Program-made: the position numbers and the translations under genes | Notes under the pieces: generated by a model | Seen by the model: only the letters and a program-made list of their open reading frames with translations | What the model was told of the DNA's origin: nothing | Databases searched by the model: none | In this document: positions 1 through 26,063 of the stretch, one piece after another | Layout: each line of letters starts with the position of its first letter | Position numbering within the stretch: the first letter of the stretch is position 1 | Virus record (IMG/VR): IMGVR_UViG_2778260991_000004 | Span: 1 to 34,638 of that record | Reading direction: 5' to 3' (one strand) | DNA from: a virus | Lineage: Duplodnaviria; Heunggongvirae; Uroviricota; Caudoviricetes | Length of the DNA: 34,638 bases

Positions 1-1176
1 TCCGCCTGTTTTGGTCTGGTAACGAGCATCAAAGTTTCCGTAGTCTGACGGTGTTACCCGTCCTGAAACATTCACTGACCGGTTGCTTTGTAACGCGCCA
101 TTCTGAAAACGGAATACATGCTGTCCATTGGTATAAACATCCAGCAGGCCGTCACCATTCTGTTTAAAGCCAGTATCACTGTCACCAATTGCAATTGAGT
201 TTCCGCCCAGCGCGTTCTGAACGCCGATACCCAGCGCACCATTGACCTGAGAACCACCGCCAACAGACACTTTATGCGACATGGATATTTCACCCGTCCG
301 CAGATTAATAGTGAACGGGCGAAGTGGACCAATATCGCCATTCTCGCCCTGACCTTCACTGGTAGGGATAAGGTGCAGGCACTCTTCCGAACGACGAAAA
401 ATAAGGCCAAAAGCGTCGTTGAAAATCCTCAGCGCATTAACACCACGGATTTTCAGCTCCCCGGTCATCAAATCACCAGATTTTTTTACATATCGCAGAT
501 CAAAATCTGAATAGATATTTCCAGGGTTTATCACGCTGAAATAGCTTTTCTCGCTATCAAGAAGACAAATCAAAGGAATACCCTTAATGATATCATTCGC
601 TACCAACCCGGACTTGTTCCCCTTATAAAGTGGGAACGTGCCAAGGACCTTTCCGCCTAGTGTTAGTTGAAGTGTCGCCGCGTTGGTATTGTTCTGAACG
701 GGGAAAACGATAATCGGGGTTCGTAGCGTCCAGTCTGTACCTCCATTAACAAAAAACGTCGAGGGAAGTTCCAGCGTCAGTGCGTTTGCAGTGCCACCAG
801 CAACACCCGCAATATAATGACCGCTCTGAAGCTGCGCTATCTGTACGAAATAGTTTTCCGAACCACGCGTGGCAAAGTTAGCCACAACGTCATTAAGGGA
901 CCAACCTTTCGCGGTCGTTCCTTCCTGCCCACGAATGACTTTCAACACATCACCGCTTACCGATACCAGGTGACAAATCTCAAATGCAGACTCTTTATTA
1001 TCGGTAAGCGTAATTTTTGCATAGACGCGTTGCCCGTTCGATTTATTTTCAAAATCGGCAGAAAGCAATTTTGCAAATTTAGCTCCCGTGCCCGGCATCA
1101 CCGGAATATCAGTCTGAATCGTCGTGATATCGCCAGCCAGTGCTGAAACAACGTTATTGCCAAATCCAAGAATCAT
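1..1176 (-). CDS. tail fiber protein, N-terminal portion (3' end runs off the window start)
   Basis: Minus-strand frame open from ATG at 1176..1174 to position 1 (392 codons, no stop; checked triplet by triplet). The ATG overlaps the TGA of the upstream gene (ATGA). Lies directly after the baseplate J and gpI-like genes. Absent from the ORF track because no stop lies inside the window. Confidence 0.5.
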   Translation of the reverse strand, partial: MILGFGNNVVSALAGDITTIQTDIPVMPGTGAKFAKLLSADFENKSNGQRVYAKITLTDNKESAFEICHLVSVSGDVLKVIRGQEGTTAKGWSLNDVVANFATRGSENYFVQIAQLQSGHYIAGVAGGTANALTLELPSTFFVNGGTDWTLRTPIIVFPVQNNTNAATLQLTLGGKVLGTFPLYKGNKSGLVANDIIKGIPLICLLDSEKSYFSVINPGNIYSDFDLRYVKKSGDLMTGELKIRGVNALRIFNDAFGLIFRRSEECLHLIPTSEGQGENGDIGPLRPFTINLRTGEISMSHKVSVGGGSQVNGALGIGVQNALGGNSIAIGDSDTGFKQNGDGLLDVYTNGQHVFRFQNGALQSNRSVNVSGRVTPSDYGNFDARYQTKTGG

Positions 1177-1799: not shown

Positions 1800-3009
1800 A
1801 CTTGTTGACCTGAACCTGTGATGCCACCGTTGAAAAATAGGAATAGGTATCGCCATAAACCAGGCTTGTGTCTTTCGCCGGAAGAACAATATGGCCGTTA
1901 ATACCAATGCTCACACTGATTGTTGAGATCAACGTCGCATCAACCAGCAACCTGACGGAACTGGTAAAAATATCCTGGATACGCAGAAGATTTATCGGGT
2001 GTCCGACTTCAATTGAATTGATGTAATCAGCAACGTTTTGCTGCACAGCCATAGCAATACCCGCCGGATCAACATAATCATCAGACACCGTGTTCCAGGT
2101 GATTAGCACCATGACGTTTTGTGATGACGGGATAACGAACGGCACCTGATAAACGTCCGGCGAAACGGTTATTGAAACCGTGCGTTTTTCCACTGCCGCA
2201 CCGGATGGATTGCTTACATCGTTGGTCAGTTTCGAAATATCCGGTACAGATTTGTAAATCGCATAAGCCACATCATACGGATCACCGCCACCAACAACCG
2301 CAACCCATTTCCCCAGCGACGACTGCCGAAAAGAAATCAGGTTTTCTCGCACACCGTTTACTGATTTGAGCATCGCTTTAAAGCAATCCGGTGTTCCCTG
2401 CACACCAAACATGCCGGACTCCATGACTTCGGCGCGGTAAGATGCCCACGTTTGCGCCTCCTGACCTGGCATCCCTGCGGTAAGGTTCGTGCATTTTACA
2501 GGCTGGTCTTTTGGTACTGATGTAATGACCTGCGTCACGGTCCCTTCCGGTACAGCCCATGAGCCTGACGTTGTGGCCACACAGTAAACTGGCTCAGTCT
2601 GCCCGCTTTCCGGTATCACAGTATCGCGGGAAACCGCATACTGGTAGTTACCGTCACCAACCACAAATCCTTTAGGGATACCAAACCCCGGCAACGCCTC
2701 AAACACCACGTATACCGCCGTATTTGTACTTAATCCCTTCTGTGCTCCATATATGTTTCCGAGTTGCATCAGTAACGGAATATTCGCGCCGTATGGGCTT
2801 ACAGAGTTAATAAGGTCCACCCGCGCCTGGTCTATTAATGCCAGCGCCCCTACTGCCGTGCTGGCAAGGTCTGTAATAAGTCCTGCCGGAAGGTTGGCTG
2901 TATATCCAGGTACTTTTTCAGCAACTCTGGTGATAAGATTCGCGAGCAAATCATTGGGTGGCGTAGGCTGCGCACCCGCACTGGTCATAGTAATTGGTAT
3001 TTCTGACAT
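1783..3009 (-). CDS. baseplate J-like assembly protein
   Basis: 408-aa ORF; size and position (after spike/baseplate genes, before the gpI-like gene and tail fiber) fit the baseplate J family; composition typical of a structural protein. Confidence 0.6.
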   Translation of the reverse strand: MSEIPITMTSAGAQPTPPNDLLANLITRVAEKVPGYTANLPAGLITDLASTAVGALALIDQARVDLINSVSPYGANIPLLMQLGNIYGAQKGLSTNTAVYVVFEALPGFGIPKGFVVGDGNYQYAVSRDTVIPESGQTEPVYCVATTSGSWAVPEGTVTQVITSVPKDQPVKCTNLTAGMPGQEAQTWASYRAEVMESGMFGVQGTPDCFKAMLKSVNGVRENLISFRQSSLGKWVAVVGGGDPYDVAYAIYKSVPDISKLTNDVSNPSGAAVEKRTVSITVSPDVYQVPFVIPSSQNVMVLITWNTVSDDYVDPAGIAMAVQQNVADYINSIEVGHPINLLRIQDIFTSSVRLLVDATLISTISVSIGINGHIVLPAKDTSLVYGDTYSYFSTVASQVQVNKYAISD

Positions 3010-3051: not shown

Positions 3052-3798
3052 TTATTTTGCCTGTTTCATTTTTTCCACCCTCTCAAGCATTCTTTTTACA
3101 TTTGATGGAGGATAGTTAAATTCATCGCCGTCTCCAAAAGAAATTTTTATAGGCTTCATTTTCATAACCAACTCTTTCAGAACTGCTTTACCAATTTCAG
3201 TTTTTGGCACTATAAAACCATTTCCATACAAGCATGATTTATAAGTTTTATAATATTCACCATTAATCAAAATTGGTGGATATTCTAATGGGCCATCAAT
3301 TTGCACTGAATTATCGCAAAATCCATTACCTTTAGATTTTGAAGCAATAAAAATAGCTATTGTTCCATCATCGCCATACATCAGGAATCTATTTTTACTA
3401 ACACCTTCCAATGGAGGTAATATTATCAGCGCACCATCAATATACCATTCAGCGTAATTCTCTGATTCATTGATTATGTTCTCATTAATTTCATTTAAAG
3501 ATGAATATTCCCTGAATGCATTAGAATACCATTGTCGAACACATGATTCTGTTTTGCACTTCTCTCTTTCATTCCACAAGTCTGAAACAATTTTTCTAAA
3601 AGCTTTCTTATCAGTGCTCTCTAACTTTACTTTTTGATATAAAGAATTTAATTTATCATCAAGTTCAGATAATTCACTGTTGTTGCAAATTAACTTTTCA
3701 GAATATGATTTAGCTTTCGAGCAATCAAAAGATACTGCATTCGCAGTTCCTATTTGTAATAAAAAGGTAAACACTACAAATAATTTTAACTTAGACAT
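3052..3798 (-). CDS. secreted LprI-like (DUF1311-type lysozyme-inhibitor domain) protein; moron
   Basis: ATG at 3798 preceded by AAGGAG; N-terminal signal peptide MSKLKLFVVFTFLLQIGTANA; Cys pattern C-x11-C ... C-x4-C resembling the LprI/DUF1311 N-domain; clearly AT-rich relative to flanking tail genes. Confidence 0.55.
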   Translation of the reverse strand: MSKLKLFVVFTFLLQIGTANAVSFDCSKAKSYSEKLICNNSELSELDDKLNSLYQKVKLESTDKKAFRKIVSDLWNEREKCKTESCVRQWYSNAFREYSSLNEINENIINESENYAEWYIDGALIILPPLEGVSKNRFLMYGDDGTIAIFIASKSKGNGFCDNSVQIDGPLEYPPILINGEYYKTYKSCLYGNGFIVPKTEIGKAVLKELVMKMKPIKISFGDGDEFNYPPSNVKRMLERVEKMKQAK

Positions 3799-4135
3799 CC
3801 TTAATCTCCTTATAAAACAGGAGAACAAATTTTACCCATTCTTAATGTCTGTTCAAGTTCATACTTTACAACCGCGCCCAGTTGAGTATGATTGGACGCA
3901 TGAGGCGTCGAAACCTCCCCCAAAAGCTGATTACCCAGCACCCTACAATGTGTTGGTTTTTTTATGCCTTTTTTTTGTGATGGCAATATGTGCGATCACA
4001 ACCCCGATCAATGTCGGGAGGGCGACGAATACAACACCCGAAAGGGGAATAAGTCCGCGGTATCTTTTGGGCCGTTTCGAACCTCCCGGCGCCACTACGT
4101 TAGTGGCAATTCGAAAAAAGCCAAAAGAGGTTACT

Positions 4136-4696
4136 ATGACCACCCAACTCATCACCGTGTTCAACGGAACCATTTCGAACGAAACCATCCTTCTATGCAA
4201 CGCTCGCGATCTGCATGCCTTTCTCGAAGTAGGTAAACGCTTTGCCACTTGGATTACCGAACGAATCAGCGAGTATGAATTCGTAGAAAATCAGGACTTT
4301 TTGATTATTTCCCAAAATCGGGAAAAAATCGGTAGAGGCAGACCAGCCAAAGACTACCATCTCACCCTGGACACCGCCAAAGAGCTGGCTATGGTCGAAC
4401 GCAACGAAAAAGGACGCCAGATCCGCCGATACTTCATCGAGTGCGAGAAGAAGCTGCGCGAAGATACCACCAGCACACAATCCCCTCTGAATGTTGACAT
4501 CATCATGCGCGTCAGAAACGGCTCGGTTACCCACATTGAGCACCACAAATCAGGCTCAGTTATAACCACAGAATGGGCAATTCACTTACTACGCAAAAGT
4601 GGATGGATTGTCATGCCACGCGATGAACTTCTTAACACGCCACTGGCCCAATTGATACCCGAAAACTTGCCTCAAACCGGAACCTGCGTCCGGTAA
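4136..4696 (+). CDS. phage antirepressor-like regulator (Ant/Rha-type)
   Basis: ATG at 4136 preceded by AAAGAGG; 186 aa; the motif DYHLTLDTAKELAMVERNEKGRQIRRYFIECEKKL resembles antirepressor DNA-binding domains; one of only two plus-strand genes, divergent from the LprI-like gene. Confidence 0.55.
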   Translation: MTTQLITVFNGTISNETILLCNARDLHAFLEVGKRFATWITERISEYEFVENQDFLIISQNREKIGRGRPAKDYHLTLDTAKELAMVERNEKGRQIRRYFIECEKKLREDTTSTQSPLNVDIIMRVRNGSVTHIEHHKSGSVITTEWAIHLLRKSGWIVMPRDELLNTPLAQLIPENLPQTGTCVR

Positions 4697-5019
4697 CTGG
4701 TTCCGTTAAAAAACACAACATCGATGTTATAGGTGGGGTTCTCTGCCCCATCTACTTTTGAAATTGCCAGCGATGCAAAATACCCGGCATACTGTTGCTG
4801 AACCATGTTCACATAGTAGTCCGGGTAAATCTGCTGCACGATGCACTGCTGCGCTGGAATGCCGTAATTCGCGTAAAACGGCGACTCCCCCAACCCCAGC
4901 TTTAACGTCTGAATGAGCGTCGTCAGCCAGCCGTAGGAGAAATCACCGTTGGCGTCTGACTCTACCGCCACCCATTTTTTGTTGCCGTTCGCGTCGGTGA
5001 CGCGGCCCCATGTTCTCAT
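4672..5019 (-). CDS. hypothetical protein (115 aa)
   Basis: ORF 4672..5052; preferred start is ATG at 5019 preceded by GAGGG, which overlaps the stop of the upstream small ORF. No recognisable motif. Confidence 0.4.
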   Translation of the reverse strand: MRTWGRVTDANGNKKWVAVESDANGDFSYGWLTTLIQTLKLGLGESPFYANYGIPAQQCIVQQIYPDYYVNMVQQQYAGYFASLAISKVDGAENPTYNIDVVFFNGTSYRTQVPV

Positions 5020-5026
5020 CGTGCCC

Positions 5027-5173
5027 TCACCACCATCGGATCTGGCCAACAAAATACCCAGACGCCAGAATCAGAAAGACCAACCAGATAAGTAAAAACT
5101 TCCAATTGGGAAATTTCTCGCCCATAACTCGAATCTCAACTAGTAATTTATAAACAATGAAAAGAAACTTCAT
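5027..5173 (-). CDS. small hydrophobic peptide (48 aa), paralog of 5292..5390
   Basis: Hand-translated: MKFLFIVYKLLVEIRVMGEKFPNWKFLLIWLVFLILASGYFVGQIRWW; AAGGGA RBS; shares the core MGExxPNWKFLLIWxVF...QIRW with the 5292..5390 product; below the 60-aa track cutoff. Confidence 0.4.
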   Translation of the reverse strand: MKFLFIVYKLLVEIRVMGEKFPNWKFLLIWLVFLILASGYFVGQIRWW

Positions 5174-5291
5174 ACAAATCCCTTTGTAACAATTACTTAT
5201 ACCAAGTCATTCTATGCTTGAGTTCACGTAGCAAATCATCCATGAAGTAATTTGTTGTTTTTTCATTGCTATATGTAAAGTTATGTAAAAA

Positions 5292-5390
5292 TTACCGCCA
5301 CCGGATCGCCTGAATCAAAGCGGATAGTCCAAATAAGAAAAACACACGCCATATCAACAGGAATTTCCAGTTGGGTAATCTTTCGCCCAT
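5292..5390 (-). CDS. small hydrophobic peptide (32 aa)
   Basis: Internal ATG of track ORF 5292..5498 with consensus AAGGAG 9 nt upstream; product MGERLPNWKFLLIWRVFFLFGLSALIQAIRWR; paralog of the 5027..5173 peptide. Confidence 0.4.
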   Translation of the reverse strand: MGERLPNWKFLLIWRVFFLFGLSALIQAIRWR

Positions 5391-5407
5391 TTCTCGTAAC
5401 TCCTTTA

Positions 5408-5572
5408 TCAGTTTTTCAGGTAAATCAATGTACCCGCCACTAATGCAGTACAAATGATCCAGGCAACAGGCGTAAGTACGTGACGAATCCCTCGGCATAC
5501 CGCGATTATCCTCGCAGCCTTATCTGCTCCTTGCGGAGTTGTCTCAGCCTTAAGAATCAGTTCGCTATCCAT
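5408..5572 (-). CDS. small predicted membrane protein (54 aa)
   Basis: Hand-translated: MDSELILKAETTPQGADKAARIIAVCRGIRHVLTPVAWIICTALVAGTLIYLKN; one hydrophobic helix; ATG overlaps the stop of the upstream small ORF; its stop lies just upstream of the AAGGAG of the next gene. Confidence 0.35.
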   Translation of the reverse strand: MDSELILKAETTPQGADKAARIIAVCRGIRHVLTPVAWIICTALVAGTLIYLKN

Positions 5573-5732
5573 TTAGAACCTTTATGATCTCTGCGATTCC
5601 CGGAAGAGATTTAGCAACAGCAAACCCTCCGATAACTATAAGAACTGCATAAAACATTCTTCTCAGAACCGGACTTCTTTCGAGCAATTTTAGAGCTTCC
5701 ACAATCCAGTCTCCTCCGCTAAAATTAATCAC
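5565..5732 (-). CDS. small predicted membrane protein (55 aa, GTG start)
   Basis: GTG at 5732 with GGAGG 7 nt upstream; product ...RRMFYAVLIVIGGFAVAKSLPGIAEIIKVLNG with one hydrophobic helix; the alternative ATG start would give 30 aa. Confidence 0.3.
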   Translation of the reverse strand: MINFSGGDWIVEALKLLERSPVLRRMFYAVLIVIGGFAVAKSLPGIAEIIKVLNG

Positions 5733-5787
5733 GGAAGACCTCCAAACATACGTAATTATCCCTTGCCTTATTCAAGGTCAGAAACAG

Positions 5788-5826
5788 AAAACCCCGACTG
5801 GGCCAACAGTCGGGGTTTTCGTTTTA
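5788..5826. terminator. bidirectional intrinsic terminator
   Basis: Perfect 9-bp GC-rich stem CCCCGACTG / CAGTCGGGG with a 6-nt loop, flanked by an A-run on one side and TTTTCGTTTT on the other; sits 30 nt downstream of the spike gene. Confidence 0.5.
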
Positions 5827-5857
5827 TGGGTAGTATTTAAAGTGAAATGAACCGGTA

Positions 5858-14430: not shown

Positions 14431-14867
14431 GGCGTGTAACCCCATACCGTGCCCATCTGCATCAGCACCGCAACAACCTGTCGTCCATACGGATCCTGTA
14501 ACATCTGCAAATCCAGCAAAGACAGATTACTCAGCGCATCGCTGATGGTGATCGAACCCGATGTCCCCTGGTCTGCTGCCGCACTGACAAGCCCGGTAGC
14601 CAGTTTCCCAAGGTTGAGTTTTTTTCTCAGGTCGGCAAACCACGAGCCGGGAGCGAAATTCAGGAGAAATGAGGCGGCAGCGTTATAAACCGTTCGCACA
14701 TAGATGATGGGTAAACGCTCCAGCCCCTGATCATGAGGGATTAGCTCCATCGCAGACTGAAAGCAACATTCCAGCGTCGGATCATCGTCAGCAATAGCAT
14801 GAACCGGTACTTTCATGTCGTCACGAACAAAGCGAATAAATCCCTCCAGTGACGGACGCAAGGTCAT
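14427..14867 (-). CDS. head-tail connector / head completion protein
   Basis: 146-aa ORF in the head-to-tail joining block. Confidence 0.35.
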   Translation of the reverse strand: MTLRPSLEGFIRFVRDDMKVPVHAIADDDPTLECCFQSAMELIPHDQGLERLPIIYVRTVYNAAASFLLNFAPGSWFADLRKKLNLGKLATGLVSAAADQGTSGSITISDALSNLSLLDLQMLQDPYGRQVVAVLMQMGTVWGYTP

Positions 14868-15337
14868 TATTTTTTAACCTTAATATTTCGCTTTGTGCTG
14901 GGCGGATTTTCCTGTTCAGTGTTAATCGCTTCCCCGGTGATTTCCATTTCAATGCCACCCGGTTGAGGTTTTTCGCCACTCTGAATCACTGCCTGATCCA
15001 CTGCGTTATTCAGCGATACGGCGCTGGCTGCGAGAATTTCTTCTGACAGGGATTCCAGATTTTCCGTTTTCTGCTCCGCGCAATCCTCAATGCGACCGAC
15101 GCTCACAGGTTTATCGATGGAATAGCAGATACCGGAAAAATTCTTGTCCACCTTGTCACAACGCTGGAATCCGTAAGGCTCATGCTGTCGGATGATGTGG
15201 TCGATAATATCGGACTGATTTTCGATCATATGCTGACGTCCGGACGGAATTGTCACACCGAACGACTGCGTTTTTTCGGGGAGTTTGTAGTTGAACGTGT
15301 GCGGCTGACGTGAGCAGTTAGCGATGTAGAGCTTCAT
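14867..15337 (-). CDS. hypothetical virion protein
   Basis: ORF 14867..15379; preferred ATG at 15337, just downstream of the capsid terminator hairpin; 156 aa. Confidence 0.35.
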   Translation of the reverse strand: MKLYIANCSRQPHTFNYKLPEKTQSFGVTIPSGRQHMIENQSDIIDHIIRQHEPYGFQRCDKVDKNFSGICYSIDKPVSVGRIEDCAEQKTENLESLSEEILAASAVSLNNAVDQAVIQSGEKPQPGGIEMEITGEAINTEQENPPSTKRNIKVKK

Positions 15338-15350
15338 AAATTTTTCCCAC

Positions 15351-15375
15351 AAAAAAGGGGAGCATTTAGCTCCCC
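15351..15375 (-). terminator. intrinsic terminator after major capsid gene
   Basis: Minus strand: GGGGAGC - TAAAT - GCTCCCC followed by TTTTTT, about 20 nt after the capsid stop codon. Confidence 0.55.
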
Positions 15376-15394
15376 GCATTATCAGATTGAACGT

Positions 15395-16423
15395 TTATGC
15401 GTATTTGGCAGACAACAGGGTGATCCCCTCAGGGCGGAAGTTCCAGCCCGGCGTCGCGCGCATGGTATACAACGTGGTCAGGCCGCCATCCGGCATAGGG
15501 GACGGGATTTCCGTCGGCGCTGCCATATCACAGAACATCACGTTGACGGCCTGCTGGTTAGGTACCAGCGTGGAGAAAATATTGGTGTTAATGGTGTGAC
15601 GCGCTTCCGGAACCTCAATCGTCGGGTTCGTAACGATGATCAGGTCATTACCACCAGCGCCTTTACCGATCAGCGTGTCGTCCTGGCAGAAAATGATGTC
15701 GTCGCCTGTCGCCTTATCGGCGACATCTTTAACCATCGTTCCCACCGTTCCGGTACCACCACCAGGACGCTGATAACTGGTCAGCTCAACAATTCCTGTC
15801 CACTCCAGAGCCTTCATGAATCGCTGTGGGCTCAGAATAACAGTCGTTAATGGCTGCCCCAGCAGCAACATGCGGGTTTTCTGGTCAGCAATCAGGCCAA
15901 GCATAAATTTAGCCATCTCACCGGAATCCCAGGTGGTATATGAATCATTCCCTTTGCTGTCGTTGCCCAGATTCAGCGTCACTGCGTTCGGGGAGTTGGT
16001 GATCCCCTCGTTATTAGCTGCATTCACGCCATACAGCAGCATATTACGCAACATTTGAGCGTGTCCCTGACGGTTAGCCAGGCGCAGGCCTTCAATCAGA
16101 GAATAGCCCCAGCGATCTGCTGCATCAGTATCGAGATAGCTGTATTGCGAGCGGGAAGAAATTCGGTAAGTCATCATTCCGTCATAGCCGCCAGAGATAC
16201 TGGAAGACGGTAACTGACCCGGCAGAGACTGGCTGACCTGCGCCTGCGAGGTCATGCGCAGATATTTCTGATAGACCATCAAATCACTGGAACTGATTTT
16301 TACCGCTGGAGCACCACCAGCCAGGACTTCAAACGCCCCGGAAGCCATGCTCTGTTGCACGATCATTTCCGGCAGCACCATTGACGGCGACACAATAGTA
16401 GTCGCAGGAGTAAATGCGCTCAT
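15395..16423 (-). CDS. major capsid protein
   Basis: 342-aa ORF after the scaffold and a small head protein, followed by a strong terminator; size and position typical of HK97-fold capsid proteins. Confidence 0.55.
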   Translation of the reverse strand: MSAFTPATTIVSPSMVLPEMIVQQSMASGAFEVLAGGAPAVKISSSDLMVYQKYLRMTSQAQVSQSLPGQLPSSSISGGYDGMMTYRISSRSQYSYLDTDAADRWGYSLIEGLRLANRQGHAQMLRNMLLYGVNAANNEGITNSPNAVTLNLGNDSKGNDSYTTWDSGEMAKFMLGLIADQKTRMLLLGQPLTTVILSPQRFMKALEWTGIVELTSYQRPGGGTGTVGTMVKDVADKATGDDIIFCQDDTLIGKGAGGNDLIIVTNPTIEVPEARHTINTNIFSTLVPNQQAVNVMFCDMAAPTEIPSPMPDGGLTTLYTMRATPGWNFRPEGITLLSAKYA

Positions 16424-25482: not shown

Positions 25483-25665
25483 TCAGTTCTGCATACACTG
25501 CCGAACACTGTCGACAATTTTGCAGACCTGAGAAGCTGTATCTAAAAGTTGGCGCGCCTTATCCAGGCTAACGCAGCCCACCAATAAAAAAGGCACCAGT
25601 ATCGCTACCAGTGCCCATTTCGCCGCCGTTCGCGGCATTCTGTGTGTCCAGTGTTTTCTGCTCAT
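25483..25665 (-). CDS. lipoprotein (lysis-associated; spanin-like or exclusion lipoprotein)
   Basis: Track ORF 25483..25737 trimmed to ATG at 25665, 14 nt after the endolysin stop; signal peptide with lipobox LLVGC; 60 aa; no C-terminal transmembrane segment. Confidence 0.45.
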   Translation of the reverse strand: MSRKHWTHRMPRTAAKWALVAILVPFLLVGCVSLDKARQLLDTASQVCKIVDSVRQCMQN

Positions 25666-25679
25666 AACACATCTGGTTA

Positions 25680-26063
25680 TCAGCGTTTCAACTGAAAGTG
25701 AGGTCCGTCTTTCAGTGTTTTCCAGTCCCCGCCCCATTCGATGGCAGTTCCCAGCTCTGCGGCAGCCTGCTTAAATGCCTGCGCTATTTTCTCGTACAGA
25801 GGCCAGTCCCATGACACCTGGCTGCCAACCCAGGCAACAACATCCACCGCATCACCGGTCAGGTGGCGGCTGTTCATGGTCTGGCTTTTCCCTTCCGCGA
25901 CCAGCTGTTTCTGGCGTTCTTTCGTGCGCAGCCCTTCTGTAATACCGAAATCAACCTCCGTCAGCTCCAGCGCACGGCGAACGACAGCAACCAGCTGTGG
26001 TTTGACGCCCTCCAGATTTTTTTCACTGCGACGGCTGAATCTGAATTTACCCGACATATTCAC
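25680..26063 (-). CDS. endolysin, peptidase M15-like (L-alanyl-D-glutamate endopeptidase type)
   Basis: 127 aa; motifs SRHLTGDAVDV ... WGGDW ... GPHFQ match the His/Asp/His metal site pattern of M15 peptidases; start GTG at 26063 or ATG at 26057. Confidence 0.65.
   Translation of the reverse strand: MNMSGKFRFSRRSEKNLEGVKPQLVAVVRRALELTEVDFGITEGLRTKERQKQLVAEGKSQTMNSRHLTGDAVDVVAWVGSQVSWDWPLYEKIAQAFKQAAAELGTAIEWGGDWKTLKDGPHFQLKR

Follow-up and report, generated by a model that had tools for sequence, protein, structure and literature searches.

The 34,638-nucleotide (nt) stretch of DNA analysed here, hereafter the window (IMG/VR record IMGVR_UViG_2778260991_000004, positions 1 to 34,638), is an Escherichia coli prophage in which four small open reading frames (ORFs), designated A, B, C and D, lie between two baseplate genes of the late operon. 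Comparative analyses indicate that the four are genuine genes under purifying selection, that they belong to three families (A, B and C/D) encoding predicted tail-anchored inner-membrane peptides, and that these families form portable cassettes which in other prophages are situated mostly at the junction between the endolysin and spanin genes. The reading tentatively retained, with somewhat less than even confidence, is that of swappable late-operon cassettes of membrane peptides serving an accessory late membrane function in the envelope or lysis programme.

A preliminary description, made from the letters of the window alone, had proposed four consecutive minus-strand ORFs of 55, 54, 32 and 48 amino acids (aa), each with a Shine-Dalgarno (SD) sequence and one hydrophobic helix, and had expected most of them to be overlooked by standard annotation. 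The four ORFs are present as described (Table 1), an SD sequence stands ahead of each, and none of them is annotated by RefSeq/PGAP in the identical locus of STEC711. Homologues were gathered from deposited phages, complete E. coli genomes, GTDB genomes and IMG/VR, A being found in 14 and B in 38 IMG/VR loci and relatives of D in 53 phage records. The ratios of non-synonymous to synonymous substitution rates (dN/dS), obtained by Nei-Gojobori counts on codon alignments and to be read with the shortness of the sequences, the frequent saturation of synonymous sites, frequent recombination and the many near-duplicate IMG/VR loci in mind, are 0.15-0.22 for A, 0.02-0.14 for B, where constraint is the strongest of the four, and 0.07-0.37 for the C/D family. 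The B alleles of the window and of locus L102, for example, are separated by 28 synonymous and only 5 non-synonymous differences over 49 codons, an identical 45-aa D protein of the Rac type is encoded by seven distinct DNA alleles, and the H-19B-type D protein by four. Since homologues keep their reading frames with dN/dS well below 1, the ORFs are genes and not products of chance; conservation of the frames and the presence of a predicted hydrophobic helix in each product, both borne out here, are two of the points on which the preliminary description had made its proposal depend. B overlaps the in-frame upstream extension of C and selection in the overlap follows the frame of B, so that C presumably either starts at its own ATG (32 aa) or is decaying.

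According to hydropathy and AlphaFold2 models, the four products are probably tail-anchored inner-membrane peptides. Each has one 19-residue window near its C-terminus with a Kyte-Doolittle mean of 1.9-2.2, which places every helix at the C-terminal end, followed by a tail of 3-8 residues, and each has a polar or amphipathic N-terminal part of net positive charge, which spans 23-31 residues in A, B and D but, owing to the truncation, only 10 in C. The N-terminus of A is a conserved amphipathic segment (NFSGGDWIVEALKLLE.SPVLRRMFY) preceding the C-terminal hydrophobic helix, and the residues EALK..E..VLRRMFY are invariant among its homologues. AlphaFold2, run with the family alignments, gave helical models for A (predicted local distance difference test score, pLDDT, 82; helices 8-19 and 21-54) and for B (pLDDT 77; helices 3-10 and 13-53). 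The helix of C contains an Arg, and C is without a long form. Translational coupling links B to A through a stop/start overlap (ATGGATAG) and the 115-aa gene downstream of the cluster to the stop of D.

Known families account for only part of the cluster. C and D belong to PHROG 6632 (E = 2.8e-12 and 3.5e-21, respectively), annotated in some records as a 45-aa hypothetical protein (rac58 of Rac-SA53; WP_000459345.1), and they matched nothing in Pfam, NCBIfam or PADLOC; A and B matched nothing in Pfam, PHROG, NCBIfam or PADLOC, and no Pfam hit was obtained at E <= 1 for any of the four. Matches in protein databases are few and all labelled "hypothetical": A and B match such proteins in E. coli and Salmonella only, and D has matches in no more than 22 representative clusters. 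Tblastn searches of 50,697 deposited phage records gave no hit for A or B. In the Qin prophage of E. coli K-12, rrrQ and rzpQ overlap and leave no room for such an ORF. Literature searches with peptide strings and accessions, and the small-gene ribosome profiling (Ribo-seq) supplement for strain Sakai, returned nothing, while keywords returned analogies only.

The preliminary description had taken two of the peptides for diverged tandem duplicates. The relatedness of C and D stands, both being members of PHROG 6632, whereas their origin by local duplication does not, C being nearer to the allele of Salmonella phage SEN34, and D nearer to that of Rac-SA53, than C is to D. The two genes are thus two PHROG 6632 alleles joined by recombination. 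The similarity between them continues in frame upstream of the ATG of C (KLIKELRE versus KLLVEIRV) with no start codon, which implies an ancestral gene of about 45 aa of which C is a 5'-truncated copy; the start of C corresponds to the invariant internal Met of PHROG 6632, behind a strong AAGGAG, the first 13 codons being lost. Remodelling of 5' ends concerns three of the four genes in the window (B, C and D): D has MKFLFIVY in place of MFDFS at its N-terminus, and that of B is also replaced with respect to its relatives, the usual KDKFGDDL extension being lost. The assignment of A and D to a single family was rejected, as hhalign shows no relation between them and they have in common only the leader and the first codons, in addition to one natural chimera.

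The internal Met, at position 14 of the 45-aa D-type form, is invariant (for instance in locus L005, 3001..3138, and in the window at 5123..5125, Met17 of D, and 5388..5390, the start of C), and in all alleles except D of the window it stands 9-10 nt downstream of GGAG, GAGG or AAGGAG. These features suggest that D-type genes possess two in-frame starts yielding 45-aa and 32-aa products, C providing the short form only, and the predicted arrangement resembles the dual starts of holin/antiholin genes.

The families are found well beyond this locus. The census of architectures, which covers all fetched loci, includes 61 loci with the order R21-type lysozyme, D, Rz (e.g. H-19B and CP-1639), 12 with lysozyme, a 38-aa ORF, B, a 28-aa ORF and Rz, eight with M15 endolysin, B, a 28-aa ORF and a 60-aa lipoprotein gene (the same type of lysis cassette as that of the window, which is without insert) and five with signal-arrest-release (SAR) lysozyme, A, a 41-aa ORF and Rz/Rz1. 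At the site downstream of the baseplate spike gene V, the content is D in 23 loci, A and B in 13, B in four, B, C and D in three, and all four genes in two. D also lies between baseplate genes in Salmonella phage SEN34 and in a tail-gene gap of a Pseudomonas siphovirus, and locus L114 has an A-like gene and a 36-aa peptide between the tail chaperone and tape-measure genes. Among 5,426 complete E. coli genomes, 2,088 match the 216-nt D cassette of the H-19B type, and in 903 of these the match reaches a cover of at least 80%; one genome can hold it at up to eight places. The D-type family is found between endolysin and spanin genes in H-19B and many Stx1, Stx2a and Stx2c phages (Stx, Shiga toxin) as well as in prophages of UTI89, ABU 83972 and O157:H7 strains. 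Taken together, the families behave as portable cassettes, recurring in hundreds of E. coli prophages, with a preference for the junction between endolysin and spanin. The remark of the preliminary description that the cluster sits well away from the lysis cassette is accurate for the window, whose lysis genes lie at 25.5-26.7 kb with the A-D array about 20 kb downstream in the same late operon, but it is a poor guide, since the relatives usually lie between endolysin and spanin.

Other small genes share this junction. At least four more families of single-helix small peptides are found there (PHROGs 4906, 4493, 1115 and 3246, function unknown; loci L157, L153 at 2140..2253, L125, L131 and L135), often in tandem, and several of these junction peptides end in (A/Q)(I/V)RWW. 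The Sp10 prophage of strain Sakai has another small transmembrane peptide (ECs1966; L157, 2625..2771) directly upstream of Rz, after an ant gene. Locus L108 (1187..1420 and 673..824), an IMG/VR prophage with an A-type cassette in its lysis module, has STnc100 and two tRNA genes upstream of the holin gene, a layout that corresponds to the arrangement reported around the Pas small RNAs (sRNAs).

The two neighbours of the site occupied in the window, V and the 115-aa gene, are directly adjacent or overlapping in prophages of Erwinia, Pantoea, Pseudescherichia, Serratia and Caballeronia, and the content of the site in E. coli and Yersinia is variable: D alone (Rac-SA53, Yersinia similis), A and B, B alone, B, C and D (E. 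coli W), or the complete set of the window, this four-gene form being present in six of the 5,426 complete E. coli genomes. The cluster has a G+C content of 0.35-0.44, against 0.50-0.54 in its flanks. The adjacency of the flanking genes in five other genera, together with the lower G+C content, indicates that the cluster is inserted DNA.

The inserted cassettes share a common anatomy. Their 5' end consists of an A-run, a G+C-rich hairpin and a T-run, followed by a leader of about 30-55 nt with the SD. In the window this hairpin, of 14 pairs, scores as a terminator on both strands, more strongly than any other such site of the tail operon, bearing out the strong bidirectional terminator that the preliminary description had placed after the spike gene. 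An equivalent hairpin heads the cassettes of E. coli, Yersinia, Salmonella and Pseudomonas phages, and its sequence varies while the pairing is kept, with compensatory changes at five pairs among 12 cassettes. It can be regarded as a predicted intrinsic terminator of conserved structure; Rfam gave only sub-threshold generic terminator matches for the region, including "sar". In L026/L029 and L102/L103, where the hairpin stands about 65-90 nt upstream of the small ORF, cassettes that otherwise resemble each other carry its loop in opposite orientations (ACTG-TTGGCC-CAGT and ACTG-GGCAAA-CAGT), and it looks as if the palindromic stem lets the loop flip. A second, smaller stem (CCUUG...CAAGG, or CUCC...GGAG in H-19B) pairs with the SD in predicted folds, with weak support from covariation. 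The spacer between C and D, which takes the place of the usual D-type leader, contains no hairpin and no promoter-like site at the scan threshold.

The 3' joint is equally characteristic: the last peptide ends in ...CGN-TGG-TGG-TGA with the ATG of the next gene within 1-15 nt, and this is kept before five unrelated genes (two types of Rz, the lipoprotein gene, the 115-aa gene and the baseplate gene of SEN34), a sixth, a tape-measure gene, following the variant ...TGG-TGG-TAA. The Arg codon of this end varies (CGA, CGC, CGT), which suggests that the RWW end is selected as protein. We infer that GGUGGUGA, which is SD-like, would let the insertion avoid polarity on the downstream gene. The joint ATGGATA(G/A) recurs where the stop of A overlaps the next start, and a natural chimera (P0052) combines an A-type N-terminus with a D-type C-terminus. 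These observations indicate that cassettes are swapped by recombination at short conserved joints, namely the hairpin with its leader, ATGGATA(G/A) and the RWW-stop-ATG end.

Table 1. Positions of the small ORFs, of the elements around them and of related late-operon features in the window
Feature	Position	Strand	Remark
ORF A, 55 aa	5565..5732	-	GTG start; GGAGG six nt upstream
ORF B, 54 aa	5408..5572	-	ATG overlaps the stop of A (ATGGATAG)
ORF C, 32 aa	5292..5390	-	ATG start; AAGGAG nine nt upstream
C-D spacer, 118 nt, A+T-rich	5174..5291	-	G+C 0.35; in place of the usual D-type leader
ORF D, 48 aa	5027..5173	-	ends ...IRWW-TGA; 8 nt from stop to the ATG of the 115-aa gene
Bidirectional hairpin of intrinsic-terminator type	5787..5820	both	A-run, 14-bp stem (8 G-C), T-run
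Shared cassette leader	5733..5786	-	CCTTG...CAAGG stem (5777-5773 / 5765-5761); SD GGAGG (5743-5739)
Six-codon mini-ORF MFGGLP in the leader	5729..5749	-	apparent remnant of a D-type start (leader alignment)
Promoter-like site TCCACA-16-TAAAAT	5698..5725	+	lies in the opening codons of A and is directed towards the hairpin
gpV-like baseplate spike gene (V), 237 aa	5858..6571	-	upstream neighbour; RefSeq "phage baseplate protein", weak GpV Apex motif
115-aa baseplate-operon gene (phrog_7986)	4672..5018	-	downstream neighbour
Q-type antiterminator gene	28381..28923	-	head of the long late operon
12-bp hairpin with T-run, tR'-like	28303..28274	-	follows the Q gene
Holin gene 1	26325..26717	-	
Holin gene 2	26060..26335	-	
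M15-type endolysin gene	25680..26063	-	
60-aa lipoprotein gene	25483..25665	-	lipobox LLVGC, three Cys; phrog_7528, function unknown

No sense promoter of the sigma70 type was detected between 4400 and 6700, the interval from the hairpin to the ends of the ORFs included, and a scan of 17 cassette types by the same criteria, with an extended -10 class added, likewise gave none on the sense strand. On the opposite strand, promoter-like sites are present in 12 of the 17 types, 74-101 nt from the start of the hairpin. The extended -10 TGcTAAAAT is found in every D-type cassette, its Pseudomonas copy meeting the standard criteria, A-type cassettes possess the site in the form seen in the window, and the O157 37-aa and L131 67-aa cassettes have TATACT at the antisense site. 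The -10 box is the reverse complement of the codons for (D/N)-F-S, and GATTTTAGCAA, which reads in antisense as TTGCTAAAATC, an extended -10, does not vary between E. coli and Pseudomonas, other synonymous sites being near saturation. Among four diverged A alleles, three show no synonymous-site change over the stretch from -35 to -10 (L113, and L148 with one change, among them) and the fourth, L114, keeps only TAAAAT; in L108 the -10 box is lost. For the window these sites lead, as a hypothesis only, to a plus-strand RNA of about 100 nt (~5732..5830), antisense to the SD and start codon of A. An antisense RNA covering the SD and start and ending at the hairpin would account for a terminator that precedes the ORF and moves together with it, and also for the fact that A and D have nothing in common beyond the leader and the first codons. 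Rfam detected no family at threshold in this region or in eight cassette loci, and the known sRNAs PasA and PasB of enteropathogenic E. coli (EPEC) and EcOnc11 and EcOnc33 of Sakai lie at other sites and have no sequence similarity to the cassettes.

The tentative reading as late accessory cassettes supposes that the Q-modified, terminator-resistant polymerase would read through the hairpin during late transcription and produce an mRNA of A-D, so that the peptides would be made only late in lytic growth, alongside the lysis and tail proteins. There they could tune the envelope or lysis, for instance by altering when or how efficiently holin, endolysin or spanin acts, while the ...CGN-TGG-TGG-TGA-(n)-ATG end would hand the ribosomes over to whichever gene is next. 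The upstream terminator, folds occluding the SD and possibly the cis-antisense RNA would prevent production of the peptides in the lysogen. The combination of a strong predicted terminator upstream with no detected sense promoter makes it probable that expression depends on Q-antiterminated late transcription, and this probable timing, which fits the preferred position of the cassettes in lysis modules, favours a late membrane or lysis accessory over an exclusion factor expressed by the lysogen. The role in lysis or envelope timing itself is a guess from context. Several points weigh against this reading. Consensus scans miss weak or non-sigma70 promoters, and a GATAAT box lies 25 nt upstream of the start of A; C is perhaps a decaying copy, with its Arg in the helix and no long form; the literature searches yielded no expression or phenotype report for any member; and the junctions between endolysin and spanin and between V and the 115-aa gene also gather unrelated cargo such as ant genes, so that position alone is no proof of a lysis role. 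A precedent of the opposite kind is moreover provided by HK97 gp15, a single-helix peptide of the tail operon which is an exclusion protein expressed by the lysogen.

This precedent underlies the proposal, already present in part in the preliminary description, that the peptides are superinfection-exclusion or defence morons expressed by the lysogen and blocking incoming phage DNA at the inner membrane. In the sense of Juhala and Hendrix, a moron is inserted DNA of differing base composition with its own promoter upstream and terminator downstream (PMC3594210), and gp15 is a superinfection-exclusion moron with its own promoter and terminator, expressed in the prophage (Cumby et al. 2012, reviewed in PMC3594210). 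The A-D cluster resembles it as low-G+C cargo placed in a tail operon between genes that stand side by side in relatives and as a source of small single-helix inner-membrane peptides; the A-like cassette of L114 even occupies the site between chaperone and tape-measure genes where HK97 gene 15 is found, and the accessory genes ant and LprI-like are among the neighbours. The insertion between otherwise adjacent genes and the difference in base composition are thus those of a moron, whereas consensus scans reveal no promoter of its own and the terminator lies upstream, directly ahead of the ORFs, although morons by definition carry both elements for expression from the repressed prophage. In addition, most relatives lie within lysis cassettes, no match to YebO, to any other Pfam family or to PADLOC was found, and the helix is C-terminal in A-D but N-terminal in the YebO-related gp15. 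A role in the prophage state is therefore not favoured, in view of the lack of a detected sense promoter between hairpin and ORFs and of the strong terminator upstream, and we consider it unlikely. A type I toxin-antitoxin-like module is unlikely as well. In it, membrane toxins would be paired with a cis-antisense sRNA that starts within the first codons, ends at the hairpin and blocks their translation, and the pair would serve addiction, abortive infection or late timing by a threshold. The small-toxin reading of the preliminary description is possible, with some indirect support from the SD-occluding folds and the predicted antisense promoter. Such a module would explain the position of the terminator upstream of the ORF and agrees with the small size and hydrophobicity of the peptides (<60 aa, one membrane helix), with antisense promoter-like sites that occur in 12 of the 17 cassette types while the sense strand has none, with the pairing of the SD in predicted leader folds, with the invariance of GATTTTAGCAA despite near-saturated synonymous sites, and with the stretch from -35 to -10 that is synonymously unchanged in three of four diverged A alleles, TAAAAT persisting in the fourth. 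PasB, AsxR and AgvB are precedents in lambdoid late-operon gaps. The supposed toxin, however, is without a promoter of its own, the antisense promoter is absent from B-type cassettes, the -35 elements are weak, no Rfam family matches, the inspected Hfq-bound sRNAs of Sakai (EcOnc11 and EcOnc33) map elsewhere, and the invariance could stem from recent exchange of the 5' module or from ordinary constraints on gene starts. The known loci hok/sok, ibs/sib and tisB/istR likewise combine hydrophobic peptides of <60 aa and SD-occluding leaders with an antisense RNA, predicted in the cassettes to end at the terminator, but the cassettes differ from them by a peptide mRNA that has no promoter of its own and by the lack of similarity to known toxin or antitoxin families.

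Somewhat broader is the proposal that the cassettes are self-contained mobile regulatory units of an undescribed kind, assembling a terminator, a cis-antisense sRNA of ~75-100 nt, an SD-occluding leader, the peptide and the RWW-stop end; we regard it as doubtful. The peptide would then be locked off in the lysogen and freed when the Q-antiterminated transcript outruns the antisense RNA, forming a threshold timer that would feed into envelope disruption or lysis. Antisense-oriented sRNAs ending at terminators are known from late-operon gaps of lambdoid prophages (AsxR and AgvB, PMC4104026), including the 83-nt PasB between tail genes I and J (PMC8550237). Together with PasA-D (PMC8550237) and P22 sar, AsxR and AgvB (PMC4104026) are comparable to the RNA of the cassettes as RNAs of ~50-85 nt directed against the late operon, arising from intergenic insertion sites and having a terminal hairpin next to the late gene upstream; they differ in acting in trans, in not being paired with a membrane-peptide ORF and in giving no sequence or Rfam match, and the cassette RNA is only predicted. 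The importance of such units, if real, would follow from how widespread D-type cassettes are: Stx1 and Stx2 phages carry them between R and Rz, and a sixth to a third of complete E. coli genomes contain them. A further possibility, that the terminator, the recombination joints and perhaps an sRNA are functional as DNA or RNA and the ORFs themselves incidental, is very improbable: the hairpin, the leader and the 3' joint are indeed conserved as DNA and C is without its N-terminus, but A, B and D show a strong synonymous excess, identical proteins come from different DNA alleles, and the Arg codons (CGA, CGC, CGT) vary within the conserved RWW end. The location between two baseplate genes and the translational coupling to the downstream gene might also designate the peptides as structural or assembly factors of the baseplate of this phage, which is improbable in the extreme given that prophages with the same baseplate genes are devoid of them, that the site does not hold a constant set of genes (D alone, A+B, B alone, B+C+D) and that the same peptides occur in the lysis cassettes of lambdoid phages of the siphovirus type.

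For the preferred reading as late accessory cassettes, the closest parallels are accessory proteins of lysis cassettes such as antiholins, releasin (Mu gp25; PMC9239132) and LysZ of a corynephage (bioRxiv 10.1101/2025.06.24.661397), which are small membrane proteins encoded with lysis genes and co-expressed late, and the relatives of A, B and D do sit between endolysin and spanin. No sequence relation links them to A-D, whose cassettes in the window are 20 kb from the lysis genes; releasin (DUF2730, PMC9239132) also differs by its N-terminal helix and larger cytoplasmic domain. No Pfam or PHROG match to holin families was found for A-D, although their relatives are located in lysis cassettes. 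As to spanin features, A-D contain no lipobox, only 3-8 residues follow the helix, and the relatives stand upstream of separate Rz/Rz1 genes, so that they do not qualify as spanins.

Phage Rac-SA53 is a relative of the window prophage, and the locus of the latter is 100% identical to that of STEC711 and five other complete genomes. Nearly all long ORFs of the window are on the minus strand, where the lipoprotein gene is followed by packaging and head genes and then by sheath, tape-measure-like and baseplate genes. The lysis cassette (two holins, M15 endolysin, 60-aa lipoprotein) contains no recognisable i-spanin of the Rz type, and the lipoprotein may be an unconventional spanin component. A second terminator-like hairpin, with a 7-bp stem and T6 (15357..15375, minus strand), coincides with the 5' end of a 170-aa ORF (14867..15379) and stands about 20 nt downstream of the ORF at 15395..16423, which we tentatively take to be the major capsid gene; it is consistent with a late operon requiring an antiterminated polymerase. 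The ant gene (4136..4696, plus strand) is convergent with the 115-aa gene, which it overlaps by 25 nt at the 3' end, and its transcript would cross D, C, B and A in antisense as far as the bidirectional hairpin; its 5' leader contains an Rfam sRNA-Xcc1 match (4013..4098, plus strand; 72.5 bits, above gathering), an element also found ahead of ant in Rac-SA53 (L001, 2423..2506). In the accessory island that separates ant from the baseplate J gene lies a gene of very low G+C content (3052..3828, minus strand; G+C 0.31) whose 258-aa product is labelled LprI-like (lysozyme inhibitor family) in RefSeq, with weak Pfam support (E = 0.016). The early region carries the only hok/sok found in the window, a bona fide type I toxin-antitoxin locus (30520..30695, minus strand; Rfam sok, 113 bits for a gathering score of 59).

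Small membrane proteins are systematically missed, and the present locus provides four of them, from three families, that are real, strongly constrained and mobile between late-operon junctions. Their terminator-first and promoter-less design, in which the 3' end also passes on to the gene behind it, differs from that of a textbook moron and can be considered a variant of the moron theme, and this layout offers a simple rule for finding more such genes. Should they prove to be exclusion factors or toxins, they would add to the defence and addiction repertoire of prophages; if the cassettes were self-contained regulatory units, they would represent a common level of control over lysis, and thereby over the release of toxin, that has been overlooked. 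If the peptides are modulators of lysis, they would have a bearing on burst timing and on the release of Shiga toxin.

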